A stretch of DNA of 64,000 bases from an uncultured Bacillota bacterium. GTDB lineage: Bacteria > Bacillota_I > Bacilli_A > Erysipelotrichales > Erysipelotrichaceae. Position 1 is the stretch's first letter. The number at the start of each line of letters is the position of its first letter. The notes below the pieces were generated by a model, which saw only the letters and a program-made list of their open reading frames with translations, ran no database searches and was not told where the DNA came from. Both the position numbers and the translations under genes were made by a program. The stretch is from assembly GCA_937919165.1 (NCBI GenBank), contig CALFPO010000026.1:4057-68056 (forward strand), written 5' to 3'. Positions 11,748 to 58,648 of the stretch are shown here, piece after piece.

Positions 11748-11749
11748 TC

Positions 11750-15812: not shown

Positions 15813-15819
15813 TTTTGGC

Positions 15820-23468: not shown

Positions 23469-23481
23469 AATCAAATAACTT

Positions 23482-24516: not shown

Positions 24517-24553
24517 AAATGTTTTATAGGCTGTTTTGTTGTAAAATAGAAGC

Positions 24554-26491
24554 ATGAGCAAAACTCGTGCTTTTTATGTTGAGCATTGGCAGGTTATAGC
24601 CATCTTGTTGATGCTTTATGATCTGATAACTATAGCCTTTTCATACTTCTTTGGCTTGTGGCTAAGGTTTGATTTCAGGTTCACGACAATACCTGTACAG
24701 TACCTTAGCGTTTACTATAAGTTCATCATTCCATATGCAATCATGTGCATCTTCATTTATGCATTCTTTAAGCTGTATAGAAGCATATGGCGTTTTGCAA
24801 GTTACAGTGAACTGATCAATACCATCCTAGCAACAACGATTTGCGGAGTGTTGAATCTGATTATCACCAGAATATTCGGTGCCAGAATGCCTTGGTCATT
24901 CCATGTCTATGGCTATATCATGCAGTTGATTTTTGCGGCTGCCGTTAGGTTCTCATATCGAATGATCTTGATGCTCAAGCGTCAGCAGATGAACAACAAG
25001 AATTCCAACAGAGTAATGCTTATTGGTGCAGGTGATGCCGGCATGACCATTCTTAGAGACATCAACAAGAATATCGAAAGTAATTCCAAGGTTGTCTGCA
25101 TCATTGACGACAATACCAATAAGTACGGAAGATATATCGAAGGTGTACCGGTTGTCGGAGGAAGAGACGACATCCTGAAGAATGTCGAGAAGTACAACAT
25201 CAACGAGATATGCTTTGCGATACCTTCGGCATCTAATCAGCAGAAAAGAGATATCCTGAACATATGCCGTGAAACCGATTGCGAAATCAAGGTCCTTCCT
25301 GGCATCCAGCAGCTCGTCAAGGGCGACGTATCTGTAAGTATGATGAAGAATGTCGCTATCGAAGATTTGCTTGGTAGAGATGTAGTCAAGGTAAACAACG
25401 ACCAGATTCTAGAATTCATCAGGGGCAAGGTAGTGTTGGTTACCGGTGGTGGCGGATCGATCGGTTCAGAACTATGCCGTCAGATCGCCAAGCACAACCC
25501 TAAACAATTGATCATCTTTGACATATATGAGAACAATGCATATGAGATTGAACAGGAACTAAAACGCAATCATCCTGAATTGAATCTTCTGGTATTGATA
25601 GGATCAGTAAGAGATTCTAAGCGCATAGATTATGTCTTTGATAAATATCGTCCAGAGATCGTCTACCACGCAGCAGCTCATAAGCATGTGCCTTTGATGG
25701 AGACATCGCCATGCGAGGCCATCAAAAACAATACCATTGGAACATTCAAGACAGCCTATGCGGCTGTGAAATATGGCACCAAGAGATTCGTGCTAATCAG
25801 CACCGACAAGGCCGTCAATCCAACAAACATCATGGGTGCAACCAAGAGGATGTGCGAGATGGTCATCCAGACTTTCGATAAGCTCATCAAGAACAACACC
25901 ACCGATAAGCTGGCTGTAGTTGAAGACTGCTTCTCGGAAGTAAGCTCAGATAAGCTGGAAAACAAGACAGAATTTGTTGCGGTAAGATTCGGCAACGTTC
26001 TTGGATCTAACGGGTCAGTAATTCCTTTATTCAAGAAACAGATTGAAGCAGGCGGTCCTGTAACGGTAACCCATCCTGACATCATCCGCTACTTCATGAC
26101 CATACCCGAAGCTGTATCGCTTGTCTTGCAGGCTGGCGTATATGCCAAAGGCGGAGAGATATTCATCCTTGATATGGGAGAACCAGTGAAGATCGATACT
26201 TTGGCTCGCAATCTTATCAAGCTTTCGGGATTCAAGCCAGATGAGGACATCAAGATCGTATATACTGGCTTGAGGCCTGGCGAGAAATTATACGAAGAGA
26301 AGCTTATGGATGAAGAAGGTCATGAAAAGACCGACAACAATCTGATCTATGTCGGCAAGCCTTTAGAGATAGATGAAGATGAATTCCTGAATCAGCTTAA
26401 GGAACTATATGACAAATCGTACAACAACGATGAAGAAATATATAAGCTTGTAGAGAAGACAGTCCCTACATACAGAAGAAACGAGGCATAA
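24554..26491 (+). CDS. Membrane-anchored UDP-GlcNAc 4,6-dehydratase (PglF/CapD/EpsC/WbpM family)
   Basis: 645 aa. Four N-terminal TM helices, two Rossmann regions ('VMLIGAGDAG', 'VVLVTGGGGSIGSELCRQI') and the 'MGATKRMCE' catalytic block. Confidence 0.9.
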   Translation: MSKTRAFYVEHWQVIAILLMLYDLITIAFSYFFGLWLRFDFRFTTIPVQYLSVYYKFIIPYAIMCIFIYAFFKLYRSIWRFASYSELINTILATTICGVLNLIITRIFGARMPWSFHVYGYIMQLIFAAAVRFSYRMILMLKRQQMNNKNSNRVMLIGAGDAGMTILRDINKNIESNSKVVCIIDDNTNKYGRYIEGVPVVGGRDDILKNVEKYNINEICFAIPSASNQQKRDILNICRETDCEIKVLPGIQQLVKGDVSVSMMKNVAIEDLLGRDVVKVNNDQILEFIRGKVVLVTGGGGSIGSELCRQIAKHNPKQLIIFDIYENNAYEIEQELKRNHPELNLLVLIGSVRDSKRIDYVFDKYRPEIVYHAAAHKHVPLMETSPCEAIKNNTIGTFKTAYAAVKYGTKRFVLISTDKAVNPTNIMGATKRMCEMVIQTFDKLIKNNTTDKLAVVEDCFSEVSSDKLENKTEFVAVRFGNVLGSNGSVIPLFKKQIEAGGPVTVTHPDIIRYFMTIPEAVSLVLQAGVYAKGGEIFILDMGEPVKIDTLARNLIKLSGFKPDEDIKIVYTGLRPGEKLYEEKLMDEEGHEKTDNNLIYVGKPLEIDEDEFLNQLKELYDKSYNNDEEIYKLVEKTVPTYRRNEA

Positions 26492-26493
26492 GA

Positions 26494-27681
26494 ATGGATA
26501 TTAAACCTTTTGAGAAACGAGTTCTTTTGGCAAGTGCCACAATGCATGATGAAGAGATGAAATACATTCAGGATGCTTTTGACAAGGGCTGGGTAACCAC
26601 AGTCGGCGAGAACCTGAATGAATTTGAAAAGGCTGTTAGGGAGAAGGTAGGCTGCAAGGCATCGGTTGCCTTGGGAGCTGGAACCTCAGCTCTGCATATG
26701 GCTGTCAAGCTTGCGGGCGTCAAGCAGAATGATGTTGTGTTCGCACAGAGTCTGACATTTGATGCAACAGTCAATCCTGCCATGTACGAGAAGGCTAATC
26801 TTGTCTTCATTGATAGCGAAAGAGATACATGGAATATGGACCCTGTAGCTTTGGAGAAGGCTTTTGAGAAATATCCTGAATGCAAAGTTGTAATGACCGT
26901 CAATCTGTATGGCACACCTTGCAAACTGGATGAGATAAAAGAGATTTGCGATAGACACGGAGCTATCTTGATTGAGGATGCTGCTGAATCATTAGGCGCA
27001 ACCTATAAAGGCAAGATGACCGGAACATTTGGACAATACAACGCCGTAAGTTTCAACGGCAACAAGATCATCACTACTTCAGGTGGTGGTATGCTTCTGA
27101 CTGATGATGAAGATGCTGCAGCTAGAGCACGCAAATGGTCTACCCAGGCCAGAGATGCTGCTCCTTGGTATCAGCACACTGAACTTGGATACAACTACCG
27201 TCTATCCAATATCCTTGGCGGCATCGGCAGAGGCCAGATGCTGCACCTTGAGGAACATATCGCCAAGAAGAAGGAAATCTTCGGCAGATATGTTGAAGGT
27301 CTGAAGGATCTGAAGGTAAGCTTCAATCCGCATCTTGATTGCTCAGAGCCAATCTATTGGCTGAGTGTCATGCTTCTTGACAAGGACATCATGTGCAAGC
27401 ATTCAAGAACAGAAATGACCTATGAATATGAAAGCGAACCAGGCAAGTCATGTCCTGATGAGATCAGAGATGTTCTGGAGGCTCACAACATCGAGACAAG
27501 ACCTATATGGAAACCAATGCATCTGCAGCCAATCTACAGAAACAACGATTATATTATGGCCAATGAAGATGTATCGGCTGATATCTTTGACAGAGGCATC
27601 TGTCTGCCATCTGATATCAAGATGACAAAAGAGGAACAAGATATCGTTATTAAACTTATCAGATCGTGCTTTGAAGGGTAG
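26494..27681 (+). CDS. DegT/DnrJ/EryC1-family PLP aminotransferase (PglE/EpsN-like, UDP-4-keto-6-deoxy-GlcNAc 4-aminotransferase)
   Basis: PLP-lysine block 'AVSFNGNKIITTSGGGMLLT'. Sits between the dehydratase and the sugar transferase. Confidence 0.85.
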   Translation: MDIKPFEKRVLLASATMHDEEMKYIQDAFDKGWVTTVGENLNEFEKAVREKVGCKASVALGAGTSALHMAVKLAGVKQNDVVFAQSLTFDATVNPAMYEKANLVFIDSERDTWNMDPVALEKAFEKYPECKVVMTVNLYGTPCKLDEIKEICDRHGAILIEDAAESLGATYKGKMTGTFGQYNAVSFNGNKIITTSGGGMLLTDDEDAAARARKWSTQARDAAPWYQHTELGYNYRLSNILGGIGRGQMLHLEEHIAKKKEIFGRYVEGLKDLKVSFNPHLDCSEPIYWLSVMLLDKDIMCKHSRTEMTYEYESEPGKSCPDEIRDVLEAHNIETRPIWKPMHLQPIYRNNDYIMANEDVSADIFDRGICLPSDIKMTKEEQDIVIKLIRSCFEG

Positions 27682-27683
27682 GA

Positions 27684-28289
27684 ATGTATAGGAATTTCTT
27701 TAAGAGGTTTTTTGATTTTGCATTATCACTAATGGCGTTAATTCTTTTATCGCCACTTTTTATGGTTTTCATCATTGTCGGAGCCATCAAGATGAAGGGA
27801 AACCCATTCTTCTATCAGGAGAGACCTGGCAAGAACGAAAAGATCTTCAAGTTGGTGAAGTTCAGAACGATGACCGAAGAGAAGGACGAGAACGGAAACT
27901 ATCTTTCTGATGATGTACGTCTTACAGGATATGGCAAATGGCTTAGGGGCACATCGATTGATGAACTTCCTGAACTCATCAATATCCTTAAGGGCGATAT
28001 GGCCATAGTCGGCCCTAGACCGCTGCTTGTTCAGTATCTGCCTTTATACAACGAGGAACAGAGACATCGCCATGATGTAAGGCCAGGACTAACAGGTCTT
28101 GCCCAGGTCAACGGCAGAAATCTTCTGTCATGGAAGGACAAGTTCAAGTTTGATGTCGAATATGTCAACAACATCACTCTTATAGGCGACATCAAGATAA
28201 TCCTCAAGACCGTTAAGAATGTCTTGAGTCATGAAGGAATAAATGCAGAAGGGTCTTCGACAGCTGAAGCATTCACAGGAAACAACTGA
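27684..28289 (+). CDS. Small (monotopic) phosphoglycosyl transferase, PglC/EpsL-like
   Basis: 201 aa. One N-terminal hydrophobic helix, 'VKFRTMTEEKDENG' and 'SIDELPELINILKGDMAIVGPRPLL' (bacterial sugar transferase core). Confidence 0.9.
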   Translation: MYRNFFKRFFDFALSLMALILLSPLFMVFIIVGAIKMKGNPFFYQERPGKNEKIFKLVKFRTMTEEKDENGNYLSDDVRLTGYGKWLRGTSIDELPELINILKGDMAIVGPRPLLVQYLPLYNEEQRHRHDVRPGLTGLAQVNGRNLLSWKDKFKFDVEYVNNITLIGDIKIILKTVKNVLSHEGINAEGSSTAEAFTGNN

Positions 28290-28290
28290 T

Positions 28291-28893
28291 ATGAAAAAAC
28301 TATTGATCTATGGCGCAGGAGGAAATGGAAGGGTCTGTGCCGACATCGCAAAATTGAATGGATATGAAGATGTTCTGTTTTTTGATGATGATCTAAGCAA
28401 GAACACAGAAGGAAAATACAGAGTGATCCATAGTCTTGATGAGATGATTGATATTGAAGAATATGATTTCTTCAACGCCATAGGTTCCAACAAGACAAGA
28501 GAGATAACTACCGATAAATGGAACAAGGAACTGATTACGCTAATACACCCAAGTGCTGTGATCGGTGAAGATGTCGAAATAGGAAAAGGTGTAGCAATCA
28601 TGGCGAATGTTGTCATCAATACCGGCACAAGAATAGGAAACGGCGTTATCGTTAATACCTATGCATCCTTGGACCACGACAACATCATAGATGACTATGC
28701 CCATATATCCGTAAATGTGCATACAGCAGGAACGGTGCATGTAGGCAAGAGAACATTTGTGGGAATCGGTTCAACAGTATCTAACAACATCAGCATCTGT
28801 GATGATGCTGTTGTCGGTGCAGGTGCCGTGGTAGTAAGCAATATTGAAGAAAGCGGAACATATATTGGAGTTCCGGCAAAGAAGAAACAATGA
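28291..28893 (+). CDS. Hexapeptide-repeat N-acetyltransferase, PglD/NeuD/EpsM-like
   Basis: 'LLIYGAGGNGRV' N-domain plus left-handed beta-helix repeats 'IGEDVEIGKGVAIMANVVINTGTRIGNGVIVNT'. ATG 28291 lies directly after the upstream stop (28287-28289). The track start 28243 would overlap it by 47 nt. Confidence 0.8.
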   Translation: MKKLLIYGAGGNGRVCADIAKLNGYEDVLFFDDDLSKNTEGKYRVIHSLDEMIDIEEYDFFNAIGSNKTREITTDKWNKELITLIHPSAVIGEDVEIGKGVAIMANVVINTGTRIGNGVIVNTYASLDHDNIIDDYAHISVNVHTAGTVHVGKRTFVGIGSTVSNNISICDDAVVGAGAVVVSNIEESGTYIGVPAKKKQ

Positions 28894-29981
28894 AGATACT
28901 GATATTGGCAAATAGCTGTGTAGGCCTATACAAGTTCAGAAAGGAACTGCTGCAGAGACTGGTCAAAGATAACCATGAAGTTTTTGTGTCTGTTCCTGAT
29001 GGAGAGTTCATTCCGCAGATAAAGGAAATAGGCTGCAGGTTCCTGGATACTGCAATCGAAAGAAGAGGAACCAATCCATTCAAGGACATGGGCCTTTTGA
29101 GGATGTATAAGTTCTATCTAAGCGAAATCAAGCCTGACATTGTCCTGACCTATACCATCAAGCCTAACGTATATGGCGGAATGGCATGCCGGAAATTTGG
29201 TGTACCTTATGTTGCGAATGTCACTGGCTTAGGATCGGCTGTAGAGAATGGTGGAATACTGCAGTTTGTGACTACAACCCTATATAAGATGGGTCTAAAG
29301 AAAGCTCAAATGGTTTTCTTCCAGAATGAAGCGAATCTTGATTTCATGAAGGAAAAAGGCATCGTCAAGAAAAACTATGATCTGATTCCTGGATCAGGAG
29401 TAAACCTGGAACAATACAGATTATTGGATTATCCAAAAAAGGATACTGTTGATTTTGTCTATGTAGGAAGAATGATGGCGGAGAAGGGCTTTGGTCTATA
29501 TCTTGATGCAGCAGAATACATAAAGGCAAAATATCCTGAAACGGTATTCCACATCTGTGGCCAATATGAAGATGACTTCAAGGATAGAGTAGATAAGCTC
29601 ATCAATGATGGCGTTGTCGTATACCATGGTTTGGTTGACGATATGGTAAGCGTATATAGAGACATACACTGTACAGTTCATCCGACATACTATCCAGAAG
29701 GAATGTCGAATGTGCTGCTGGAATCTTTGGCATGCGGAAGGCCAATCATCACAACCGATAGACCTGGATGCAAAGAGATAGTTGACGATGGAATTAATGG
29801 CTTCATGGTAAAGCAGAAAGATGCAAATGATCTGATCGAAAAGATAGAGAAGTTCCTTCAACTTTCGTATGAAGAAAGAAAGAAATTGGGACTTAACGGA
29901 CGAGAAAAGGTTGAAAAGAGTTTCGACCGCAATATCGTCATTGAAAGATATCTGGAAGAAATAGAAAAAGCAAAGAAATGA
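28890..29981 (+). CDS. Glycosyltransferase family 4 (PglA-like position)
   Basis: E-x7-E block 'PTYYPEGMSNVLLESLACGRPIITTD'. ATGA overlap with the acetyltransferase gene. Confidence 0.85.
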   Translation: MKILILANSCVGLYKFRKELLQRLVKDNHEVFVSVPDGEFIPQIKEIGCRFLDTAIERRGTNPFKDMGLLRMYKFYLSEIKPDIVLTYTIKPNVYGGMACRKFGVPYVANVTGLGSAVENGGILQFVTTTLYKMGLKKAQMVFFQNEANLDFMKEKGIVKKNYDLIPGSGVNLEQYRLLDYPKKDTVDFVYVGRMMAEKGFGLYLDAAEYIKAKYPETVFHICGQYEDDFKDRVDKLINDGVVVYHGLVDDMVSVYRDIHCTVHPTYYPEGMSNVLLESLACGRPIITTDRPGCKEIVDDGINGFMVKQKDANDLIEKIEKFLQLSYEERKKLGLNGREKVEKSFDRNIVIERYLEEIEKAKK

Positions 29982-31084
29982 ATAAACCAGTAAAAGTGCT
30001 TGAGATGATTGCGGTTCTTAACTATGGCGGATCTCAAGCGATGATGGTCAATCTGATAAAGGCAATGGATAGAGACAAGGTCCAGTGCGATTTTGTCATT
30101 GACCACGAGGAAGCAGAACTTAATGGGCTGCGTCCGGTTGTTGAGGAATTGGGCTGCAAAGTCTATACCGTTCCGACTTTCAAGGGAACTAACGTAAGCG
30201 AAATCAAGGATGCGTGGAACAAGCTTCTTGATGAGCATCCTGACTATCAGATTCTGCATTCGCATTCGCGCAGCTATGCCTCGATTTATCTTCCAATCGC
30301 CAAGAAGCATGGTCTGAAGACTATTATCCATAGCCACAACACATCAAACGGAAAAGGGGTTGCTGCTTTGGTTAAGAATGTTCTTCAATATCCTTTACGC
30401 AAGATAGCTGACTACTTCATTGGCTGTTCAAGGGAAGCTGGTGAATGGCTGTTTGGTGAGGAAGTAACTAACGGCGATAGATTCCATGTTTTGAATAACG
30501 CCATTGATACAGATAAATATATCTATGACGAAAAGATCAGAAACGAATACCGCAAGGAATTCGGCATCAAGGATGAGAAAGTATTCATCCAGGTTGGAAG
30601 ACTTTCAACACAGAAGAACCATGAATTTACCCTGAATGTTTTCAGCAAGCATATAAAGAATAATCCAGAAGATAAGCTGGTTATTGTCGGAAATGGTGAA
30701 CTTGAAGGCGAAATCGAAAATAGAATCGATGAACTTGGAATGAGAGATAATGTCATTCATCTAGAAAACAGAAATGATGTGAATTGCTTGCTGCAGATGG
30801 CTGATGTCTTTCTGATGCCATCACTGTTTGAAGGATTGAGCGTAGCAGCTGTTGAAGCTCAGGCTTCAGGAATCAGATGTCTATTGAGCGATAATGTCGA
30901 CAGAAACTGCGACATTACAGGATTATGCGAGTTTTTGCCTCTTGATGAAGAGATTTGGATAAAGAAGATGAATGAGGAAATCATTCAAAGAGAAAACCAT
31001 AAAGAAGATATCGTGAAGGGTGATTTCGATGTGAACGGCACTGCCAAGTGGCTTGAAGATTTCTATATAGGTATAGTAGAGTAA
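29978..31084 (+). CDS. Glycosyltransferase family 4
   Basis: 'MPSLFEGLSVAAVEAQASGIRCL' E-x7-E block. ATGA overlap upstream. Confidence 0.85.
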   Translation: MNKPVKVLEMIAVLNYGGSQAMMVNLIKAMDRDKVQCDFVIDHEEAELNGLRPVVEELGCKVYTVPTFKGTNVSEIKDAWNKLLDEHPDYQILHSHSRSYASIYLPIAKKHGLKTIIHSHNTSNGKGVAALVKNVLQYPLRKIADYFIGCSREAGEWLFGEEVTNGDRFHVLNNAIDTDKYIYDEKIRNEYRKEFGIKDEKVFIQVGRLSTQKNHEFTLNVFSKHIKNNPEDKLVIVGNGELEGEIENRIDELGMRDNVIHLENRNDVNCLLQMADVFLMPSLFEGLSVAAVEAQASGIRCLLSDNVDRNCDITGLCEFLPLDEEIWIKKMNEEIIQRENHKEDIVKGDFDVNGTAKWLEDFYIGIVE

Positions 31085-31089: not shown

Positions 31090-32265
31090 ATGTGGTCAGA
31101 TAAGAGATACGTAAACGTTATTATTGATGTGCTTTTGTTCCTTGTAGGAATCAATTTTTTGCATTATGGACAGCTGATACTTCCTGTTATCTGTCTTATG
31201 TTGTTCATAGACAGAAAATTTAGATTCAAGGTAAATAACTTAAAGACGTTTGTGGTGCTATGTCTATTTGCGATCGCGTTCTTTGCCTTCTCATATGGCT
31301 ACAGTTTCTATTGCGTAATGGGATTCTGTCTGCCGATGGCTTACTATATCGGATCAAATATGAAGGATATTAACGAGAACAATGTAGCTAAAGCCATATA
31401 TATAATTGCCTTCGGCATGTCTGTTCATCTGATGCTTAACTTTGCATACGACTATTATGTTCTTGGCCCTGGATTCATGGGAAGACATCATCACTACGAT
31501 ATATGGACCCAAGGAATAGTGGCGGTAACTACAACAGCTGTCAACAGCATACCTATCATCTATTCCATATACTACGTGATTTTCTATGAAACAGATCGAA
31601 TATGGAAAGTAACGGGAATGGTATTCTTCTTGGCGTCGATGATATACAATCTTGCGCTAGGAAGAAGAACCCCTGTATACATACTGATCATCTCTTTTGT
31701 GTTCTCGGTGCTTTATGAGAAGCTTGTTTTGAAGCATAAGAAAAAGGATCTCAGTAAAGCGTTGAAGCTTTCTATTGTGATTGTATGTGTTGCCTTTGTT
31801 ACTTTTGTTTTTGCATACATGCTAAATATCTTCAATTTGAAATCCGCAATCGGAGAACTCTATATAATCACTAAGTTCAAAGAAGGATTGCTGGATATGG
31901 AAAGGCTGAAGATATTTATCGGCGCAGTTAAATTGGCCCCATATCATTTGTTCGGAGGACAGGAAATCAGTTCTATCCTTGAAATAGAGGTTCATGACCT
32001 ATGGATGGATACGTATGATTTCGCTGGTATTGTGCCATATGCTTTGCTTATCGTTTATTCAATTATCTATCTGTTGAATATGGCTAAAGCTTTAAGAAGC
32101 GGAATATCCAATGGCTTCAAGATATTCGTTTTAAACATATCTGTTTCGACAGGCTTGCTAATGTTCATTGAACCAGTAATGACAGGATCATCGTTGTTCC
32201 TTATCTGTTCGGTGATGATTGGGGCATTGATAGAAGGGATGCTGAATGAGAATGAAGGAAAATAA
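31090..32265 (+). CDS. wzy: Wzy-type polymerase / O-antigen-ligase-like membrane protein
   Basis: 391 aa, about 10 TM helices. 'NLALGRRTPVYILIISFVF' resembles the Wzy_C/O-antigen ligase Arg block. Adjacent to wzx. Confidence 0.55.
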   Translation: MWSDKRYVNVIIDVLLFLVGINFLHYGQLILPVICLMLFIDRKFRFKVNNLKTFVVLCLFAIAFFAFSYGYSFYCVMGFCLPMAYYIGSNMKDINENNVAKAIYIIAFGMSVHLMLNFAYDYYVLGPGFMGRHHHYDIWTQGIVAVTTTAVNSIPIIYSIYYVIFYETDRIWKVTGMVFFLASMIYNLALGRRTPVYILIISFVFSVLYEKLVLKHKKKDLSKALKLSIVIVCVAFVTFVFAYMLNIFNLKSAIGELYIITKFKEGLLDMERLKIFIGAVKLAPYHLFGGQEISSILEIEVHDLWMDTYDFAGIVPYALLIVYSIIYLLNMAKALRSGISNGFKIFVLNISVSTGLLMFIEPVMTGSSLFLICSVMIGALIEGMLNENEGK

Positions 32266-33517
32266 GTTCGCAAAGAATGCATCTTGGATAATGATTGGCC
32301 GCATATTCCAGCTGGGACTTACTTTTGTCACGACCATGCTGGTTTCAAGATATCTTGGCCCTGACCAGTATGGCAAGATAACTTTGGCATATTCGTATGT
32401 ATCTTTGTTCATTCCTATATGTGCTTTGGGAATGAACGATATCGCCATAAAATCATTCATCGACAACAAGGACAAAGAAGATGAAACGTTAGGCACAATG
32501 CTGTGCCTTAGACTTGTTGCAGCAATCTTTTCTGTTGGGCTTCTATATATCATCTTGAGAATCAAGAGCGATAATCCGGTCACTATTGCCGTGGGAATAC
32601 TTCAGTCGATTTCGTTGATGTTCCAGATATTTGAATCTATTTCGTACTGGTATCAGGCAAATATGATGTCAAAGAAGGTTGGAATAATATATGCCGTTTC
32701 CTATACTTTGACCGCTATATTCAGGATTGCGGGTTTGATTGTCAAAAGAGATATCAACTGGTTTGCCTTTGCGGTATCACTTGATATCGTTGTCATTGCC
32801 GTTTTGCTTCTATATGTATATTTCAAGGATGGACACAGATTGTCTTTCTCATGGAAGCTTGGAAAGCAATTGTTGAGCAAGAGCTATCACTACATATTTG
32901 CCAGCATTATGGTCGTCATCTACAGCAAAGCTGATACCATCATTCTTGGAAATATGGTTGATGATGCAAGCGTTGGCTGCTATGCGGCTGCCACCACCTT
33001 ATGCAACGCCTGGCCATTTGTCTTAACAGCCATCATTGATTCAGCTAGTCCTATCATCATTGAATATTCAAAGTCAGATAGGAATCTGTATTACAGCAGT
33101 CTGAAGAAACTGTATGCGGCAATATTCTATATTGGAGTTGCTGCAGCACTTGCATTCAACATCGGCTCATCGCTGATCATCAATCTGATATATGGTGCAG
33201 AATATGCACCAGCAATCATGCCGCTTAGGATTGTGAGCTGGAGCACCATCTTTGCCTATCTTGGCGTGTCACGAACCATCTGGATGCAGTGCGAGAACAA
33301 GCTCAGATACGAAAAGACTCTGTCTCTTTTAGGCGCGATCATCGATATTGTCTTGAACTATGTTCTGATTGGAAGATTCGGAATCAATGGTGCAGCTATG
33401 GCTTTGACCATCACTCAGATCATGACCAATCTGGTATTCCCGTTGATCATCAAACCGACAAGAGAGAATGGAAAGCTTATACTTGAGGCAATAGCGCTTA
33501 AGGGGGTTCTGAAATGA
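32246..33517 (+). CDS. wzx: Wzx-type flippase (MOP/PST family), second copy
   Basis: 423 aa and polytopic. 'FAKNASWIMIGRIFQLGLTFVTTMLVSRYLGPDQYG' is a typical PST N-terminus. Confidence 0.8.
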   Translation: MRMKENKFAKNASWIMIGRIFQLGLTFVTTMLVSRYLGPDQYGKITLAYSYVSLFIPICALGMNDIAIKSFIDNKDKEDETLGTMLCLRLVAAIFSVGLLYIILRIKSDNPVTIAVGILQSISLMFQIFESISYWYQANMMSKKVGIIYAVSYTLTAIFRIAGLIVKRDINWFAFAVSLDIVVIAVLLLYVYFKDGHRLSFSWKLGKQLLSKSYHYIFASIMVVIYSKADTIILGNMVDDASVGCYAAATTLCNAWPFVLTAIIDSASPIIIEYSKSDRNLYYSSLKKLYAAIFYIGVAAALAFNIGSSLIINLIYGAEYAPAIMPLRIVSWSTIFAYLGVSRTIWMQCENKLRYEKTLSLLGAIIDIVLNYVLIGRFGINGAAMALTITQIMTNLVFPLIIKPTRENGKLILEAIALKGVLK

Positions 33518-34206
33518 AATACAGAACCGAATGGAAATACATATGTACAGACTATGATATGGATCTGCTTAGACCAAAGATTGCAGCTGTGCTGAAACTT
33601 GATGGCAACGCCAACAAGGAAGTCTACAATATCCATAGCCTATATTTCGATGACTACAACAATGCTTGCGCTTTCGACAACGATGCTGGTGCAAGCGAAA
33701 GATACAAGTGGCGCATACGCTATTATGATGACAGCACCGACTTCATCAGATTGGAAAAGAAAGAGAAGATCGGTGAACTCTGCTATAAGCGCGATTGTCC
33801 TATAAGCAGAAAACAATATGATGCTATCATTGAAGGGGAAATAGGAAGCGTGCTTTCAAGCAGCGATGATAGATTGCTGAAGGAATTCTGTGCTGAGATT
33901 CTCGCCAGACATTTCAAGCCGAAGATCATCATCGATTATGAACGTCAGGCTTATGTTGAGCCAATATCTCACATTAGAATAACGTTTGACCGCAATATCT
34001 GTGGATCACTAGATATAGATCGTTTCTTTGAGAGAGACTATTTAAAGTATCCGCTCCAGGAAATGTATCAGCATGTATTGGAAGTTAAATTTGATGATGT
34101 CTTGCCTGGCTATCTGGAAAGCATATTGCGTGCAGGAAGACTAGAAAGAAATACATTCAGCAAGTATTATCTCGGTAGAGTGATACTGGAAAGGAATTTG
34201 TTATGA
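33514..34206 (+). CDS. VTC-domain protein (triphosphate-tunnel / polyphosphate-polymerase-like domain), cytoplasmic
   Basis: 230 aa with no TM helix. Blocks: 'YRTEWKYI', 'IHSLYFDD', 'RYKWRIRYY', 'IRLEKKEK', 'RITFDRNI', 'LEVKFD'. ATGA overlap with wzx. Confidence 0.75.
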   Translation: MKYRTEWKYICTDYDMDLLRPKIAAVLKLDGNANKEVYNIHSLYFDDYNNACAFDNDAGASERYKWRIRYYDDSTDFIRLEKKEKIGELCYKRDCPISRKQYDAIIEGEIGSVLSSSDDRLLKEFCAEILARHFKPKIIIDYERQAYVEPISHIRITFDRNICGSLDIDRFFERDYLKYPLQEMYQHVLEVKFDDVLPGYLESILRAGRLERNTFSKYYLGRVILERNLL

Positions 34207-34880
34207 GCTTTATTTCGGAAGTATTATCAGCATTATTCTCAAGAGTCGGATATGATGTGGCTCCTTTGTCTACAATCATTTCCGTTCTGGTAGTTACGCT
34301 TATCATGTCGGTATATGAATTTGTCGTGTATCGTTTGGTTTCGCATCGTGCGATCTACAACAAACAGTTCCATGTGGCTATCTTGGTAATTCCTTTCTTC
34401 ATCAGCTCAATCGTTATGGCTTTGCAATCTAACATCGTCATAACCTTAGGAACAATTGGCGCCTTGGCAATCATCAGATTCAGAACAGCCATCAAGGATT
34501 CTACCGATATGATCTATCTTCTTTGGAGCATCTATGTAGGAATCACCTGTGGATGCCGTCTCTATGAATCATGCATCCTTACATCATTGACTGTAACGGT
34601 GATACTGCTTGCGGTAAATCTTCTTGGCGGCAAGCTGTTCAAGAATCCTTATATATTGATCGTCAACAGCAAAGAAGACATTGAAGATAAGCTGAGCGAA
34701 GCAATAAAGAACAATACAAAATCACTCAGGCTCAAGAGCAGAAACTATACAAACAAGGGTGTCAATTACGTATACGAACTGAGTCTTAAGAATCCTGAAG
34801 ATCTAACAAAGGCCATCAGACAGCTTGAAGGCATCGATCAGTTCTCGCTGCTTGAATACGACAGCAACGATATCATCTAA
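34203..34880 (+). CDS. DUF4956-family membrane protein
   Basis: 225 aa with 4-5 hydrophobic helices. 'LAIIRFRTAIKDSTDMIYLLWSIYVG' block and a soluble C-terminal tail. ATGA overlap upstream, TAATG downstream. Confidence 0.7.
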   Translation: MSFISEVLSALFSRVGYDVAPLSTIISVLVVTLIMSVYEFVVYRLVSHRAIYNKQFHVAILVIPFFISSIVMALQSNIVITLGTIGALAIIRFRTAIKDSTDMIYLLWSIYVGITCGCRLYESCILTSLTVTVILLAVNLLGGKLFKNPYILIVNSKEDIEDKLSEAIKNNTKSLRLKSRNYTNKGVNYVYELSLKNPEDLTKAIRQLEGIDQFSLLEYDSNDII

Positions 34881-36496
34881 TGAAAAAGAAGAGTCTGGCA
34901 ATTCTGTTCATCGCATTATCCATATTGGTAATTGGGCTGTTTTTTGGCATGGAGAATCATGGTGTTCCTACCTATGTTGAACAGTTCTCTTCATTATGCA
35001 TTGAAGATGCAGACTCTATACGTTCCGGAAAAGACAGAACCAATTCGCTTAAGGCTGATCTTTCTTTCAATGGCTTCCAGCTTTTCTACGATCGAAAGGA
35101 CAACAACTATTTCTATTCCCTTCAGGAAGGCAACAGCTTTGCGTATGATCCGCTTGTCATGTGGCAATCAAGCAATATTAAGGTTGCCTTTGAAGGAAAC
35201 GGAATAAATGACGAAACAATCAAGAATAACGAAACAAATACAATAATCCTATACAACGACAAGCAATACAGCGAATATAAATTGACCTGCACAACCTTGC
35301 CGATCATCAATATCGATATGTTCGAAGATGATTTTGGCTCTAACTACAGCGATTGCACCTTCACCATTTTTGACAATAGATCAGGTGATGATGGCAAATG
35401 CGAACAGTATGAAGGAAAGGTGAGAATCAGAGGCGGATCTACTGGCGATCTGCCAAAGCCTGGACTAAGAATCGAGCTTGATAGTGTACTGAAGGGCGAC
35501 AACAATAAGGACGAAAAGAAGTACGATTTGTTTGGCTTGGAGCCTGACAATGAATATGTAATATATACATCAAACGTTGAGAAGGATTTTGTCAGAAACG
35601 TCTTTTCCACCAATCTTTGGTATGACACGTGCGCTGACGACAATATGTTTGGAATAAAAGCCGGAATGTCATACAAGTATGTTGAATTATTTAAGAACAA
35701 CGAGTATTGGGGACTATGCGCAATCGGCAATCCTATAAGCAAGAAGAGGGGCTATGTCGATCTTGATCCAAAATCAGACAAGTATCCATTGGAGAACATA
35801 TACAAGTGCAATTTCGTTGGTGACGAATCCATTCTTGATATAGAAAAATCTGGAGCAGATAATAGTTTCTTTTCGAAGACAAATATAGATGTTGATGGTT
35901 CCAGAAAGCCTTTATATGACTATTTCAAAACCATAATCTATTCTAATAATGCCGATGAATTGCGTGATTGCGCCGATATGGATAATGCCATTGACATATT
36001 TCTGTTCTACAATCTCATTCAAGGCTGGGATAATTCCTGGCTAGAAGAAGGGAAAGTAAAGCTAAGGAATACATATCTTATTTCAAAAGTATGTGATTCC
36101 GGAACCAAGATACTCTTTGTGCCATGGGATCTTGATAGAACGTGGGGCAAAGAAGCCGGTGCTACAGATAATCTTATGGACTATACGAAGAATTATGATG
36201 TCTTGGCAAATCCAGTCGAAAAATTATTGCTTCATAAAGACGAAGACATCAAAGATGAAGTGCTTGAAAAATACCGCAATTATAGAAGCAACGAGTGGTC
36301 TGATGATGAAATCATGAGCCTTTTGAATAAATATGAAAAGGAAATATATTGTTCCGGAGCTTTTGCAAGAGATTGCCTAAGATGGCCGGATAATGAACAT
36401 GATTCTGACGTGAATCTTGATGTTTTTAAAGAATATGTAATTAATAGGCTCCATTATTTTGACGAGTACATTGAGACCAAAATGGTTTCAGAATGA
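34880..36496 (+). CDS. CotH-family (atypical kinase fold) protein with N-terminal signal anchor
   Basis: 538 aa. N-terminus 'MKKKSLAILFIALSILVIGLFFG'. CotH blocks 'YVELFKNNEYWGLCAIGNP' and 'ILFVPWDLDRTWGKE'. Confidence 0.8.
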   Translation: MKKKSLAILFIALSILVIGLFFGMENHGVPTYVEQFSSLCIEDADSIRSGKDRTNSLKADLSFNGFQLFYDRKDNNYFYSLQEGNSFAYDPLVMWQSSNIKVAFEGNGINDETIKNNETNTIILYNDKQYSEYKLTCTTLPIINIDMFEDDFGSNYSDCTFTIFDNRSGDDGKCEQYEGKVRIRGGSTGDLPKPGLRIELDSVLKGDNNKDEKKYDLFGLEPDNEYVIYTSNVEKDFVRNVFSTNLWYDTCADDNMFGIKAGMSYKYVELFKNNEYWGLCAIGNPISKKRGYVDLDPKSDKYPLENIYKCNFVGDESILDIEKSGADNSFFSKTNIDVDGSRKPLYDYFKTIIYSNNADELRDCADMDNAIDIFLFYNLIQGWDNSWLEEGKVKLRNTYLISKVCDSGTKILFVPWDLDRTWGKEAGATDNLMDYTKNYDVLANPVEKLLLHKDEDIKDEVLEKYRNYRSNEWSDDEIMSLLNKYEKEIYCSGAFARDCLRWPDNEHDSDVNLDVFKEYVINRLHYFDEYIETKMVSE

Positions 36497-36511: not shown

Positions 36512-36545
36512 TTTCTTAGAATCCTAACAAGGAGGATTGTTTATT

Positions 36546-37562
36546 ATGTTCAAGAATAAGGTATTGCTTATTACCGGCGGAACGGGTTCATTCGGTAACG
36601 CCGTAACAAAGAGATTTTTGACTACGGATATAAAAGAGATAAGAATTCTCTCTCGTGACGAGAAGAAGCAGGATGATATGCGTCATGAGTATCAGCAGAA
36701 ATATCCAAAGTTTGCCGATAAACTCAAGTTTTTCATCGGCGATGTTCGTGACTACAAATCAATAGAATATGCATTTAAGGGTGTAGACTATGTCTTCCAT
36801 GCGGCAGCGCTGAAGCAGGTCCCTTCATGTGAGTTCTATCCGATTGAAGCAGTAAAGACCAATGTGCTTGGTTCTGATAATGTAATCGATGCATGTGTTA
36901 AGAATGGCGTAAAGAAGGCTATCTTCCTTTCTACCGATAAGGCTGCCTATCCAATCAATGCTATGGGCATGACAAAGGCTTTGATGGAAAAGAATGTCAT
37001 TGCCAGATCAAGACAGCTGCAGAAGGGCGATACTGTTCTATGTCTTACAAGATATGGAAACGTCATGGCATCAAGAGGAAGCGTAATTCCGCTGTTTGTT
37101 GAACAGATTGAAAACAATCAGCCAGTGACAGTGACAAATCCTGACATGACCAGATACATGATGACTCTTGATGAGGCTGTTGAACTGGTGCTGTTCGCTT
37201 TTGAGAACGGAAATCAGGGAGATCTGTTTGTTCAGAAAGCACCAGCAGCAACAATTGGAACTTTAGCTCAGGCTGTTGTTGAACTCAAGGGCAACAAGGA
37301 CACAAAGATCGTAAACATCGGTACTAGACATGGCGAGAAATTATATGAAGTGCTCGTCACAAAAGAGGACATGGTGAAGGCTGAGGATCTTGGCGACTAC
37401 TATCGCATTCCAGCCGACAATAGGGACCTCAATTACGACAGATATATCGAAAAAGGCACAAAGAAACTTGATGAAGGAAAAGAATATAATTCCCACAATA
37501 CAAAACGTCTAGATGTAGATGGAATGAAGAAGCTTCTGAAGAAGCTTGACATGTTCAATTAG
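36546..37562 (+). CDS. fnlA: UDP-GlcNAc 4,6-dehydratase/5-epimerase (FnlA/CapE/WbjB)
   Basis: 'VLLITGGTGSFGNAVTKRFL' and 'MGMTKALMEK'. About 338 aa. The track start 36537 is a TTG; ATG 36546 has better RBS spacing. Confidence 0.9.
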   Translation: MFKNKVLLITGGTGSFGNAVTKRFLTTDIKEIRILSRDEKKQDDMRHEYQQKYPKFADKLKFFIGDVRDYKSIEYAFKGVDYVFHAAALKQVPSCEFYPIEAVKTNVLGSDNVIDACVKNGVKKAIFLSTDKAAYPINAMGMTKALMEKNVIARSRQLQKGDTVLCLTRYGNVMASRGSVIPLFVEQIENNQPVTVTNPDMTRYMMTLDEAVELVLFAFENGNQGDLFVQKAPAATIGTLAQAVVELKGNKDTKIVNIGTRHGEKLYEVLVTKEDMVKAEDLGDYYRIPADNRDLNYDRYIEKGTKKLDEGKEYNSHNTKRLDVDGMKKLLKKLDMFN

Positions 37563-37571
37563 GGGTGAATT

Positions 37572-38771
37572 ATGAAAATTTTAGTAACAGGGGCCAATGG
37601 CTTTGTCGGCAGGAATCTCGTTCTAGCATTAAAGGAATTGGCTCTAGGAAACGATCGCACCAGACCCAATCTAAAGATCGATGCAATCTTTCCTTATGAC
37701 ATCGGATTGAATGAAAAATATCTTGAGGATTTCTGCAAGAACTGCGATTTCGTATTCAATCTGGCTGGCGTCAACAGACCGAGCGATCCAAAAGAATATA
37801 TGGATGGCAACTTCGGTTTTCTGGCCAAGATCGTAAAGATCCTTATTGCGAACAAGCATACAGTTCCTATCATGCTATCAAGTTCAATCCAGGCATCTAT
37901 GACCGGAAGATACGCAGGAAGCGAATATGGAAAATCAAAGGCAGCCGCTGAACAGCTGGCTTTCCAATATGCCCAGAAGTTCAATACGAAAGCTTTTGTA
38001 TATCGCTTTCCTAACCTCTTCGGCAAATGTTGCAAACCTAACTACAACAGTGCAGTAGCGACATTTTGCTATAATTACGCACATGATTTACCTATACAGG
38101 TAAACGATCCAAATGTTGAGCTTGAACTGTTATATATCGATGATCTCATCAAGGCAATGCTGGATATGCTTGAAGGATATACATATCGTTGTGAATATAA
38201 CGGATTAGATCTTATCTACAACAAGGCTGGAAGATACTGCTTCTGTCCTGTGACACATAAGGTTACTCTTAAGGAGATTGTTGAAGACCTTGAGTTGTTC
38301 AAGTATCAGCCAGAATCTCTGCTGATGGCTCCGCTTGAGGAAGGAAGCTTCACCAAGAAGCTGTATTCTACTTATCTTAGCTATCTGCCTGCTGAGAAGA
38401 CCATATTTGATCTGAAGACAAACGTCGATACCAGAGGCTCATTCACCGAAATACTCAAGACGGTTGATGGTGGACAGTTCAGCGTGAATATTTCAAAGCC
38501 GGGAGTTACTAAGGGTCAGCATTTCCATAACAGCAAGTGGGAATTCTTCATTGTTGTCAAAGGTAGAGCCCTGATTCAGGAAAGAAACCTTTTGAATAAT
38601 GAATTATATCAGTTCCAGGTGAGCGGCGATAAGCTGCAGGCGGTGCATATGCTTCCTGGATATACCCATAAGATCGTCAATCTTGACCAGTCAAGGGAAC
38701 TGATTACTTTGATGTGGGCCAATGAGATGTTTGACCAGGAAAGACCAGATACATTCCACGAGGAGGTTTAG
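37572..38771 (+). CDS. fnlB: FnlB/CapF-type bifunctional reductase/epimerase (SDR plus C-terminal cupin)
   Basis: 'KILVTGANGFVGRNLV' N-terminal SDR and C-terminal cupin 'GQHFHNSKWEFFIVVKG'. Lies between the fnlA and fnlC homologues. Confidence 0.8.
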   Translation: MKILVTGANGFVGRNLVLALKELALGNDRTRPNLKIDAIFPYDIGLNEKYLEDFCKNCDFVFNLAGVNRPSDPKEYMDGNFGFLAKIVKILIANKHTVPIMLSSSIQASMTGRYAGSEYGKSKAAAEQLAFQYAQKFNTKAFVYRFPNLFGKCCKPNYNSAVATFCYNYAHDLPIQVNDPNVELELLYIDDLIKAMLDMLEGYTYRCEYNGLDLIYNKAGRYCFCPVTHKVTLKEIVEDLELFKYQPESLLMAPLEEGSFTKKLYSTYLSYLPAEKTIFDLKTNVDTRGSFTEILKTVDGGQFSVNISKPGVTKGQHFHNSKWEFFIVVKGRALIQERNLLNNELYQFQVSGDKLQAVHMLPGYTHKIVNLDQSRELITLMWANEMFDQERPDTFHEEV

Positions 38772-38773
38772 CT

Positions 38774-39916
38774 ATGAACAAACTTAAGCTGATGATAATT
38801 GTCGGAACTAGACCAGAAATAATCAGATTATCGGAAGTGATCAAGAAGTGTGACAAGTATTTCAATACCGTTCTTGTCCATACCGGACAGAATTATGATT
38901 ATGAACTCAATGGCATATTCTTTAAGGAATTAGGATTGAAGGATCCTGATTATTATCTTGATGCAGTTGGCGATGACCTTGGATCGACAATCGGCAATAT
39001 CATCGATAAGTCATATAAACTGATGGTCAAGATCAAACCTGATGCCTTGCTGGTACTGGGAGATACAAATAGCTGCTTAAGCGTAATTGGAGCTAAGCGT
39101 CTGCATATACCTATATTCCATATGGAAGCAGGCAATAGGTGCTTCGATGAATGTTTGCCTGAAGAAACAAACAGAAGAATTGTCGACATCATTTCTGATG
39201 TGAACATGTGCTATTCTGAGCACGCCAGAAGATATCTGAATGCTTCCGCAGTCGCAAAGGAAAGAACATATGTTACAGGTTCGCCTATGGCAGAAGTGCT
39301 CAATGCTCATATCAAGGACATTGAAGCAAGCGACATCCTTAACGAACTTAATCTTGAAGCAGGCAAATATATTCTGTTGAGCGCCCATCGTGAAGAGAAT
39401 ATCGATACTGATGAGAATTTCTTGTCATTATTCAATGCGATAAACAAGATAGCCGAAACATACGATGTTCCTATTCTATATTCGTGCCATCCAAGAAGCG
39501 CGAAGAAACTCAAGGAAAAGAAGTTCAAGCTTGATAAACGTGTCATCATGCATAAGCCATTAGGTTTCCTTGACTACAATAAGCTGCAGATGAATGCCAT
39601 GTGCGTCGTATCCGATAGCGGAACTCTGCCAGAAGAATCGACATACTTCAACAGCATCGGCAAGCCATTCCCTGCAGTTGCCATAAGGACATCTACTGAA
39701 AGGCCTGAAGCAATAGATAAGGGCAACTTCATTCTTTCCGGCATTACAGAAAAAGAAGTTCTGCAGTCTGTCAAAGTTGCCATCGCCATGAACAAGAGTG
39801 GTGATTTTGGTGTCGATGTTCCAGACTATAGCGACATGAATGTTTCTAGCAAGGTAGTGAAGATCATCCAATCATACACAGGAATCGTTGACAGGATGGT
39901 TTGGAGGAAGCACTGA
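38774..39916 (+). CDS. fnlC: UDP-2-acetamido-2,6-dideoxy-L-talose 2-epimerase (FnlC/CapG; non-hydrolysing 2-epimerase family)
   Basis: 'MIIVGTRPEIIRLSEV' N-terminus typical of WecB/FnlC epimerases. 380 aa. Confidence 0.85.
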   Translation: MNKLKLMIIVGTRPEIIRLSEVIKKCDKYFNTVLVHTGQNYDYELNGIFFKELGLKDPDYYLDAVGDDLGSTIGNIIDKSYKLMVKIKPDALLVLGDTNSCLSVIGAKRLHIPIFHMEAGNRCFDECLPEETNRRIVDIISDVNMCYSEHARRYLNASAVAKERTYVTGSPMAEVLNAHIKDIEASDILNELNLEAGKYILLSAHREENIDTDENFLSLFNAINKIAETYDVPILYSCHPRSAKKLKEKKFKLDKRVIMHKPLGFLDYNKLQMNAMCVVSDSGTLPEESTYFNSIGKPFPAVAIRTSTERPEAIDKGNFILSGITEKEVLQSVKVAIAMNKSGDFGVDVPDYSDMNVSSKVVKIIQSYTGIVDRMVWRKH

Positions 39917-47833: not shown

Positions 47834-47843
47834 GGTGAACAAG

Positions 47844-51286: not shown

Positions 51287-51294
51287 GAGTACCG

Positions 51295-55120: not shown

Positions 55121-55123
55121 AAT

Positions 55124-55132
55124 TGATATAAT
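55124..55132 (+). promoter_or_regulatory. Candidate extended -10 promoter (TGATATAAT) upstream of rmlA
   Basis: A perfect TGnTATAAT sits in the 34-nt gap. GAGGAA RBS at 55143-55148, ATG at 55155. Confidence 0.4.
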
Positions 55133-55154
55133 TAAGAAAAGCGAGGAATAAGTT

Positions 55155-57561: not shown

Positions 57562-57585
57562 AGGTAGAGATACCTCTTTTTATTT
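57561..57585 (+). terminator. Possible weak intrinsic terminator
   Basis: GAGGTA-GAGA-TACCTC hairpin (6-bp stem, 57561-57576) followed by TTTTTATTT. It begins at the last base of the stop codon. Confidence 0.4.
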
Positions 57586-57593
57586 GGTAAAAT
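57585..57593 (+). promoter_or_regulatory. Possible extended -10-like element (TGGTAAAAT) upstream of rmlB
   Basis: Lies in the 66-nt gap, 35 nt upstream of ATG 57628. GGAGG RBS at 57611-57615. Confidence 0.3.
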
Positions 57594-57627
57594 AGTTTAT
57601 GTATCCAAACGGAGGAATTTTTTTGTT

Positions 57628-58647: not shown

Positions 58648-58648
58648 T

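Follow-up and report, generated by a model that had tools for sequence, protein, structure and literature searches.

An uncultured bacterium of the Erysipelotrichaceae (Bacillota; assembly GCA_937919165.1) carries three translationally coupled genes for a tunnel enzyme of the VTC family, a membrane protein of the DUF4956 family and a CotH-family protein that is predicted to be exported. They lie at positions 33514-36496 of a stretch of 64,000 nucleotides of contig CALFPO010000026.1 (contig positions 4,057 to 68,056; this whole stretch is called the window below and is numbered from its first letter). This trio is a further member of a published but functionally uncharacterised module, and the kind of locus that hosts it is new, being of the Wzx/Wzy type and not a Pel locus; what the window adds is a clean, coupled trio inside a Wzx/Wzy operon.

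In streptococci and clostridia cotH and genes for a 'poly-phosphate polymerase', a DUF4956 protein and a DUF4832 protein form an accessory set of the Gram-positive pel locus, contiguous with pelDEADAFG, and a variant of the set occurs in bifidobacteria (Whitfield et al., 2020, bioRxiv 10.1101/768473, PMC7112168). The trio of Streptococcus intermedius consists of SIR_1592, an MgtC-like transmembrane protein with an ACT tail, SIR_1593 with a polyphosphate polymerase domain and SIR_1594, a secreted CotH protein with an FN3 domain (mBio 2025, PMC12345266). Moreover, Clostridium perfringens NELoc-2 has a VTC protein, a membrane protein of 222-226 residues and a CotH protein beside a chitin-synthase-like glycosyltransferase (PMC2879425). 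The two Pel papers and this description of NELoc-2 were all that a literature search found on the function of the trio. The first-pass annotation of the window, made from the sequence alone, had said that it knew of no experimentally defined function for the triad; as a claim of novelty this fails, the trio having been published in 2020 and deleted in 2025.

Three coupled genes and their predicted products

All genes of the unit are on the forward strand. The upstream operon partner, wzx (32246-33517), encodes a Wzx-type flippase (Pfam Polysacc_synt, E 1.9e-22, and Polysacc_synt_3; weak NCBIfam matches to Wzx/MOP models), and its stop codon overlaps the start of the first open reading frame (ORF) of the trio in an ATGA at 33514-33517. 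ORF1 (33514-34206, 230 amino acids, VTC-type tunnel enzyme, predicted cytoplasmic) is joined to ORF2 (34203-34880, 225 amino acids, DUF4956 membrane protein) by a second ATGA at 34203-34206, and ORF2 to ORF3 (34880-36496, 538 amino acids, CotH family, predicted to be anchored or exported) by a TAATG at 34878-34882, whereupon 40 nucleotides separate ORF3 from fnlA. Re-reading the window sequence confirmed the coordinates, lengths and three junctions of the first-pass annotation, located all the peptide blocks quoted there in the ORF translations, and upheld its claim of translational coupling among the trio genes and with wzx, as seen in the overlapping stop and start codons. Promoter and terminator scans around the trio gave counts no higher than shuffled sequence and, being uninformative, were not used. 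The GC profile has no discontinuity at the trio and thus no insertion signature, and a recent horizontal insertion of the trio alone was rejected on this ground.

Profile searches recovered the three families that the first-pass annotation had named, each above its Pfam cut-off: ORF1 matches VTC (PF09359) with E 1.2e-36 and 126.9 bits (cut-off 23) over model positions 2-231 of 235, ORF2 matches DUF4956 (PF16316) with E 8.6e-11 and 42.3 bits (cut-off 30.6), and ORF3 matches CotH (PF08757) with E 4.3e-22 and 79.5 bits (cut-off 23.8) over model positions 1-321 of 322. Scores of this strength to curated models lie far outside chance, and we regard the identity of the three parts as close to certain. 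No NCBIfam model was found for ORF1 or ORF3. Sequence searches of the PDB gave little, as neither sequence nor profile searches with ORF1 reached Vtc4, a sequence search with ORF2 found no solved relative, and the first direct sequence and profile searches with ORF3 found nothing; predicted structures and Foldseek were relied on for this reason.

What kind of tunnel enzyme is ORF1? The AlphaFold2 model (predicted local distance difference test, pLDDT, 88.8) is a beta-tunnel of eight long strands with a C-terminal helix at residues 217-229. Its best 13 Foldseek matches in the PDB are all yeast Vtc4, Vtc2 or the VTC complex (E 1.7e-14 to 1.5e-11), with a TM-score on the query (TMq) of about 0.7 for the VTC matches and 0.74 for the top one, and generic triphosphate tunnel metalloenzymes (TTMs; for example ygiF and CYTH proteins) rank lower, starting at E 2.5e-8, six orders of magnitude below the Vtc4/Vtc2 structures. 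In 80 homologues of ORF1 the residues R63/K65/R67/R69, E81/K83/K85, R144, R155/T157/D159 and E190/K192 are invariant, as is the S216-K217-Y218 triplet that opens the last helix, and R4/E6/K8 are identical in all 70 homologues that cover them, the other 10 being gapped there. The invariant residues alternate along the strands, and the tunnel-facing set is strongly basic. Hydrolase-type tunnel enzymes possess an acidic patch where Vtc4 has basic residues instead, and the catalytic Lys-458 of Vtc4 is located near the C-terminus, at the position of Lys-200 in AtTTM3 (Martinez et al., PMC4641920). In ORF1, K192 occupies the position of an acidic-patch Glu of the hydrolases, turning E-x-E into E190-x-K192; strand beta-1 reads R4-x-E6-x-K8 and retains one Glu (E6). 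By this motif-based mapping ORF1 fits the Vtc4 polymerase pattern at E190-x-K192 and at K217. A profile of ORF1 had one match in the PDB, a weak one to Vtc2 (E 2.4) that aligns SLYFDD, RIRYY, LEKK, YER and RITFD. Taken together, sequence and model identify ORF1 as a VTC-type enzyme of predicted polymerase-like activity, and its relatives bear the NCBI name 'polyphosphate polymerase domain-containing protein'.

Hydropathy analysis detected no hydrophobic segment in ORF1, in agreement with the first-pass annotation. Like the yeast VTC complex (Vtc4/Vtc3 or Vtc2/Vtc1), ORF1 combines membership of the Pfam VTC family with a C-terminal plug helix and, by the motif-based mapping, with a basic tunnel and an invariant Lys on that helix, and in both systems an enzyme on the cytoplasmic side has a partner in the membrane. 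Unlike the yeast proteins, ORF1 is a single 230-residue domain without SPX and without a fused DUF202 transmembrane domain; the membrane partner in the trio is a separate, MgtC-like protein, and its outside partner with a kinase fold has no counterpart in yeast.

ORF2 contains hydrophobic stretches between residues 19 and 142, read from hydropathy as about five transmembrane segments, and then a soluble C-terminal tail, some 80 residues long and predicted to be cytoplasmic; the first-pass description of four to five segments plus a soluble tail is consistent with this. Positively charged loops at 38-55 and 92-99 predict an N-out, C-in orientation by the positive-inside rule. DUF4956 proteins share the invariant core LQSN..TLGTIGALAIIRFRTAxKDxxDM, of which the basic stretch RFRTAxKD is predicted to be at the cytoplasmic face, and the tail motifs KSRN and FS..EYDxxD. 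Relatives are uniform in length (220-230 residues). At E<=1e-10 the family comprises 2170 clusters (50% identity); among its 150 best matches no protein exceeds 266 residues and no fusion was seen. Matches of ORF2 to MgtC/SapB stay below the cut-offs (21.5 bits versus 31.4 in Pfam, 24 versus 214 in NCBIfam), by which profile scores ORF2 is a relative of this family and not a member. The architectures are alike, a multi-spanning N-terminal region preceding a small C-terminal domain that is soluble; ORF2 differs by its own invariant motif, RFRTAxKD, and no TTM enzyme is known to be linked to MgtC.

In ORF3 one hydrophobic segment at the N-terminus (residues 6-24), from which export or anchoring is predicted, is followed by a beta-rich N-terminal domain (about 30-180) and the CotH core (181-526). 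Its AlphaFold2 model (pLDDT 87.9) leads in Foldseek to Bacillus cereus CotH 5jd9 (E 1.7e-16, TM-score 0.72 on the target), and a trimmed, broader profile of 38 CotH cores also reaches 5jd9, at E 4.6e-5. The alignment pairs the Asp of QNFDG with D384 of ORF3, HN with N397 and PWDYD with D417/D419, and these residues are conserved among ORF3 homologues (D384 in 53 of 60, N397 in 59 of 60, D417/D419 in 59 of 60). The catalytic residues of Bacillus subtilis CotH are D228 and D251 (PMC7821199), which we infer to correspond to those of the B. cereus chain from an identical spacing of 23 residues. The first-pass annotation was right about the CotH family and the N-terminal signal anchor, and the catalytic-type residues predicted for the VTC tunnel and for CotH, whose loss it had named as a point against its reading, are retained in both proteins. 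ORF3 resembles Bacillus CotH (5JD9/5JDA) in family and fold and in the catalytic Asp, the Asn and the metal-binding Asp; identity is 13-14%, and ORF3 adds the export or anchor segment and the beta-rich domain of about 150 residues. Bacillus CotH, a Ser/Thr kinase of the spore coat, has ATP at its disposal in the cytoplasm of the mother cell, whereas ORF3 is predicted to lie outside a vegetative cell and is encoded in a glycan operon. Ser/Lys/Arg-rich substrates resembling CotB or CotG were sought in the window and none was found, no ORF exceeding 30% S+K+R or 22% S+T.

An N-terminal hydrophobic segment is present in all 60 full-length CotH homologues, whereas just one of 83 VTC proteins has any hydrophobic segment; because of this difference the predicted arrangement of one protein inside, one in and one outside the membrane is a property of the whole family.

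The module across genomes

How consistently are the three genes kept together? A scan of species-representative genomes with two narrow VTC peptide patterns yielded at least 328 species-level genomes, from which the 80 loci closest to the VTC gene of the window were fetched; survey counts refer to these 80 loci, or to 81 with the window included. ORFs were labelled with local hidden Markov models and the labels then corrected by Pfam, which repaired the omission of a divergent CotH clade by the first local CotH model that had made five loci appear as VTC-DUF4956 only. The 80 loci come from metagenome-assembled genomes (MAGs) and isolates labelled Erysipelotrichaceae, Lachnospiraceae, Saccharibacteria/Nanosyncoccaceae, Bacteroides, Muribaculaceae, Chloroflexi/Flexilinea, Gastranaerophilales, Acidaminococcus and others.

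VTC and DUF4956 genes are adjacent in 76 of the 81 loci, in several phyla, and a full CotH gene joins them in 59, in the order VTC-DUF4956-CotH in 54, CotH-VTC-DUF4956 in 3 and other arrangements in 2. A further 14 loci have VTC-DUF4956 and then a short ORF resembling the N-terminal part of CotH, usually with a Cthe_2159 protein after it; VTC-DUF4956 occurs by itself in 3 loci (two of them at a contig end) and VTC alone in 5. Spacing is tight: of 76 VTC-DUF4956 pairs 31 have overlapping ORFs, 19 of them with the four-nucleotide ATGA type, and in 64 of 70 related loci no more than 30 nucleotides lie between DUF4956 and CotH. Two loci, L035 (5387-13465) and L036 (1913-12261), hold two copies of the module in tandem, one of the CotH proteins being 1065 residues long.

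The variant with the short ORF (L048:4188-6306; equivalents in L053, L057, L058, L062, L068, L069, L071, L073 and L074, also in L046, L079, L080 and L061) is carried by MAGs labelled Bacilli, Bacillales and other taxa. The ORF of about 260 residues that follows VTC-DUF4956 has no Pfam match and matches residues 1-228 of ORF3 only (27% identity, E 1e-16), corresponding to the anchor and N-terminal domain without the kinase core. Behind it comes an exported Cthe_2159 carbohydrate-binding protein, often succeeded by a protein with a metallo-beta-lactamase fold, and a histidine kinase and a response regulator are encoded upstream. As the short ORF keeps the N-terminal part of ORF3 without the kinase core, the variant suggests that it may be the N-terminal domain that belongs with VTC-DUF4956, and that the catalytic partner outside may be exchangeable.

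Beyond the trio no flank is conserved, since the 888 flanking proteins fall into 582 clusters, and the idea of one universal genomic context was rejected on these numbers. The commonest families within two genes of the trio are GlgC/GlgD-type nucleotidyl transferases (15 of 139 upstream proteins), Cthe_2159 (13 proteins), peptidyl-tRNA hydrolase (8), metallo-beta-lactamase-fold proteins (6), sugar epimerases or dehydratases (5-6), H+-pyrophosphatase (4) and Polysacc_synt (3); Pel families are absent from the 25 commonest families at this distance in the 80 closest loci. When the glycan proteins of the window itself were used as queries, a test that gives a lower bound, two or more classes of glycan genes were detected near at least 11 of the 80 loci and three or more near at least 6. 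The first-pass annotation had proposed to count both the co-occurrence of the three families and their proximity to wzx and glycosyltransferase genes; the linkage is borne out by the 59 loci with a full CotH, and the neighbourhood by that part of the loci only. In other lineages the neighbours of the trio include GT2-DUF2304 or Bac_transf/GT4. Judged from gene content, glycan contexts appear to have recurred independently (Wzx/Wzy, GT2-DUF2304, Bac_transf/GT4, Pel and NELoc-2), and not as a general rule.

The module is not Pel-specific. The syntenic trio was reported as not found outside Pel loci (PMC12345266), a statement that the survey contradicts and that does not hold generally. The module is autonomous and evolutionarily mobile, recruited to glycan loci repeatedly but not always.

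Some of the other surroundings deserve mention. Eight trios of Lachnospiraceae (L022, L028, L030, L032, L042, L044, L049 and L060) are directly downstream of a glgC/glgD-like pair, and seven of them (not L044, which meets a contig end) directly upstream of pth and a gene for about 1180 residues that we take to be mfd; this housekeeping context probably reflects a single ancestral placement. A membrane-bound H+-translocating pyrophosphatase adjoins VTC in four loci (L056:7391-10690, L066:7036-10690 and, divergently, L019 and L025), in two of which VTC has neither a DUF4956 nor a CotH partner. Two phosphoanhydride enzymes side by side are reminiscent of the acidocalcisomes of eukaryotes, where VTC and an H+-pyrophosphatase likewise occur together. 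The loci L087-L090 (3664-10222) have a DUF4956 protein recorded in 544 assembly-collection blocks under the NCBI name of a Lachnospiraceae MAG protein, and there a second, divergent CotH gene (794 residues) is transcribed divergently from VTC-DUF4956-CotH (CotH of 814 residues). This version is flanked by hflX and by GH53/LacI/GH2 genes and lies outside any biosynthetic glycan locus. Another copy of the module is situated among genes for Macro-domain and ADP-ribosyl-glycohydrolase proteins.

The polysaccharide locus in the window

By its gene content the window is an envelope-glycan super-locus, and the trio, here and in a sister species, appears to be part of an operon for a Wzx/Wzy-dependent heteropolysaccharide. 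The unit is predicted to extend from a PIG-L deacetylase gene at 22806 past 45 kb. Its co-directional upstream part (22806-31084, forward strand) encodes, by Pfam, the PIG-L deacetylase, Acyl_transf_3, a PglF-like dehydratase, a DegT aminotransferase, an initiating transferase of the Bac_transf family, a PglD-like acetyltransferase and two GT4 glycosyltransferases. Between this part and wzx lies a gene for a probable Wzy-type repeat-unit polymerase (31090-32265, forward strand; multiple transmembrane segments, weak NCBIfam TIGR04370 match with E 8e-4, same position in the sister species). Downstream of the trio are genes of FnlA/FnlB/FnlC (CapE/F/G) type (36537-39916, forward strand; Pfam Polysacc_synt_2 and Polysacc_syn_2C, Epimerase and Polysacc_synt_C, Epimerase_2), which presumably provide a UDP-L-FucNAc-like sugar, and then DegT and FdtA. 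The PglF/DegT/PglD/Bac_transf set suggests a bacillosamine-like first sugar.

In the sister species of the Erysipelotrichaceae the order PglF-DegT-Bac_transf-GT4-GT4-Wzy-Wzx-[trio]-FnlABC-DegT-FdtA-GT8-GT4-GT2 is found on 24 contigs. It is that of the window except for the PglD-like acetyltransferase, which was undetected in the sister species; the two VTC proteins are 68% identical, and wzx and VTC are 7 nucleotides apart in the sister species versus the ATGA overlap in the window. The view of the first-pass annotation that the polymer of this locus is what the trio works on finds backing in local synteny and in the wzy-wzx-[trio]-fnlABC order of the sister species, and none in a general synteny with glycan genes.

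Compared with the accessory trio of Pel loci, that of the window has the same three families, contiguous, co-directional and beside exopolysaccharide genes, with an MgtC-like membrane part and cytoplasmic tail in the DUF4956 protein and a secreted or anchored CotH. The host loci differ: the one in the window is Wzx/Wzy-dependent (Bac_transf, GT4, Wzy, Wzx, FnlABC), that of Pel synthase-dependent (pelDEADAFG). The Pel trio has a DUF4832/glycoside-hydrolase neighbour and SIR_1594 an FN3 domain, whereas a Pfam scan of 45 window ORFs revealed neither a Pel family nor a DUF4832/glycoside-hydrolase partner, and ORF3 gave no sign of an FN3 domain. The PIG-L family de-N-acetylase gene (22806-23468) heads the Wzx/Wzy unit, and one may speculate, by analogy with Pel, that a partly de-N-acetylated and hence cationic polymer is the common thread of the loci that host the trio.

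Farther from the trio, the region 49868-59524 is occupied by another polysaccharide unit, which relies on an ABC-type transporter (ABC2_membrane, ABC_tran, glycosyltransferases, rmlA, rmlC, rmlB and rmlD), in which a Metallophos/PGA_cap-like phosphoesterase gene (56611-57561) is inserted between rmlC and rmlB. The region 5170-12760 encodes a YfhO-family membrane glycosyl-modification protein, an NTP-transferase-HAD fusion, an RmlD-like reductase, an acyltransferase and a GHMP sugar kinase, a set that looks like an activated-sugar pathway of the heptose or 6-deoxyheptose type; YfhO, NTP-transferase-HAD and GHMP kinase genes together with several glycosyltransferase genes span 5-21 kb. Five ORFs of 362-513 residues have no Pfam match at E<=1e-5 (15805-17346, 20465-21553, 44533-45765, 47799-48944 and 53786-55120).

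A predicted transmembrane relay and its alternatives

How could the three proteins cooperate? That they act together is very likely. The explanation that we prefer, tentatively and at somewhat less than an even chance, is a membrane-spanning module of three genes that relays phosphate to the local glycan. Briefly, the VTC enzyme would draw on the ATP of the cytoplasm and produce, or keep in place, a phosphoanhydride donor (for instance polyphosphate, polyP) at the membrane; the DUF4956 protein would tether the VTC enzyme and couple or conduct the donor across the membrane; and the CotH enzyme would transfer phosphate or a polyP chain to an acceptor outside the cell, at this locus most plausibly the glycan being flipped and polymerised, or its wall anchor. 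Taken separately, the transmembrane relay of phosphoryl groups or polyP deserves no more credence than the whole and possibly slightly less, and it is doubtful that the local glycan is its target. The most specific version, a split bacterial analogue of the VTC machine, seems rather unlikely. In it a soluble VTC polymerase docked on the MgtC-like protein would thread polyP, or its terminal phosphate, through the cytoplasmic membrane and so fuel, independently of ATP, a CotH ecto-kinase for surface glycans or wall components, with the Wzx/Wzy polysaccharide among its substrates.

Two points make the relay attractive: a kinase outside the cell must find a donor in a place with little ATP, and ORF1 has as its closest structural relative the one tunnel enzyme for which the passage of a polymer across a membrane is known. 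Fam20 kinases of the secretory pathway, among them the glycan kinase Fam20B, are related to CotH, act outside the cytoplasm and in some cases on sugars, using ATP imported into the Golgi lumen. There is no such supply outside a Gram-positive cell, which makes the linkage of CotH to VTC and DUF4956 suggestive.

A number of observations weigh against the relay or its target. The CotH protein keeps a nucleotide-kinase-type active site, and we know of no enzyme with a protein-kinase fold that uses polyP as donor; the ectodomain of ORF3 is net acidic (95 D+E versus 59 K+R). The residue correspondence between ORF1 and Vtc4 is drawn from motifs, its one alignment being the weak match to Vtc2. A pore formed by the MgtC-like DUF4956 protein is hypothetical, ORF2 and the DUF202 channel of yeast VTC are unrelated, and fusions of VTC or of CotH to DUF4956 were looked for and none was seen among the matches listed. 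MgtC, the nearest named family, is known as a regulator of the F-ATPase and of PhoR (cited in PMC12345266) and not as a proven transporter. In S. intermedius, deletion of SIR_1592 leads to more Pel and deletion of SIR_1594 to less, both halving aggregation in sputum medium, and deletion of SIR_1593, the VTC gene, causes no significant change (PMC12345266). Opposite shifts in Pel for the DUF4956 and CotH mutants together with a null VTC mutant are not predicted by a linear relay, so that of the three-step scheme of the first-pass annotation the topology is retained and the linear pathway finds no support in these mutants. In addition, most of the 80 related loci show no glycan genes nearby in the lower-bound test, the prevalent gut Lachnospiraceae copy stands alone between hflX and GH53/LacI/GH2, and the literature search found no biochemical activity reported for a bacterial VTC, DUF4956 or exported CotH protein.

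Could the module instead be regulatory? The MgtC-like protein and the TTM would then set or sense a cytoplasmic signal derived from phosphate or nucleotides, CotH would be the sensor or effector outside, and polymer output would be tuned without any phosphate crossing the membrane. TTMs include adenylate cyclases and triphosphatases, two-component systems adjoin the Cthe_2159 variant, and heterogeneous flanks are expected of a general envelope regulator. The weak MgtC match of ORF2 recalls the control of F-ATPase and PhoR by that family, the DUF4956 tail is ACT-like in S. intermedius, and the deletion phenotypes described above would also suit a regulator (PMC12345266). Against this, the catalytic triad of CotH is almost invariant, as in an enzyme that needs a phospho-donor outside, ORF1 is far closer to the Vtc4 polymerase than to cyclase or hydrolase TTMs and is devoid of part of the acidic patch, and the single-pass anchor of ORF3 comes without a cytoplasmic domain that could relay a signal; we consider this explanation unlikely. 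Alternatively, polyP itself may be the exported product, a polyanion of the surface or matrix serving for example as counter-ion to cationic glycans such as Pel that are rich in amino sugars or de-N-acetylated, with VTC plus DUF4956 as bacterial counterpart of the yeast VTC synthase-translocase and CotH only priming, capping, anchoring or trimming the chain. Such a role would agree with the fold of ORF1, closest to that of Vtc4, an enzyme that couples synthesis to passage through the membrane (PMC4641920), with VTC-DUF4956 as a constant core whose outside partner varies between full CotH and the CotH-N-like protein plus Cthe_2159, with the association of the module with Pel, a cationic polymer, and with the PIG-L deacetylase at the head of the local glycan unit. 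It has to contend with the hypothetical nature of the DUF4956 pore, with a VTC deletion in S. intermedius that has no aggregation phenotype (PMC12345266) and with conserved CotH catalytic residues that imply more than a structural part, and it appears improbable.

It could finally be imagined that the genes are mere neighbours, a mobile cassette that landed by chance next to wzx and has no link to the glycan, perhaps none even among its members. Flanking genes do vary widely between lineages, and VTC stands alone in some loci. However, order and tight spacing are kept across phyla (59-76 of 81 loci), the GC content is continuous at the trio, the placement is identical in a sister species whose VTC has diverged to 68% identity, the first gene shares its start with the wzx stop in the window, and glycan contexts recur in independent lineages, all of which leaves chance adjacency a very small probability.

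If the preferred relay were true, bacteria would have a new route for sending energy or phosphate outward, and glycans or the wall would be subject to a modification of a new class, with a bearing on the biofilm matrix (Pel), capsule charge and interaction with the host. Bacterial polyP is attributed to PPK1 and PPK2. Phosphorylation outside the membrane of Gram-positive bacteria would have to proceed without a pool of ATP, and the trio ties an exported CotH protein genetically to a VTC enzyme. Exported 'kinases' of the CotH family are common in gut bacteria, and the trio is widespread, including in very prevalent Lachnospiraceae of the gut.

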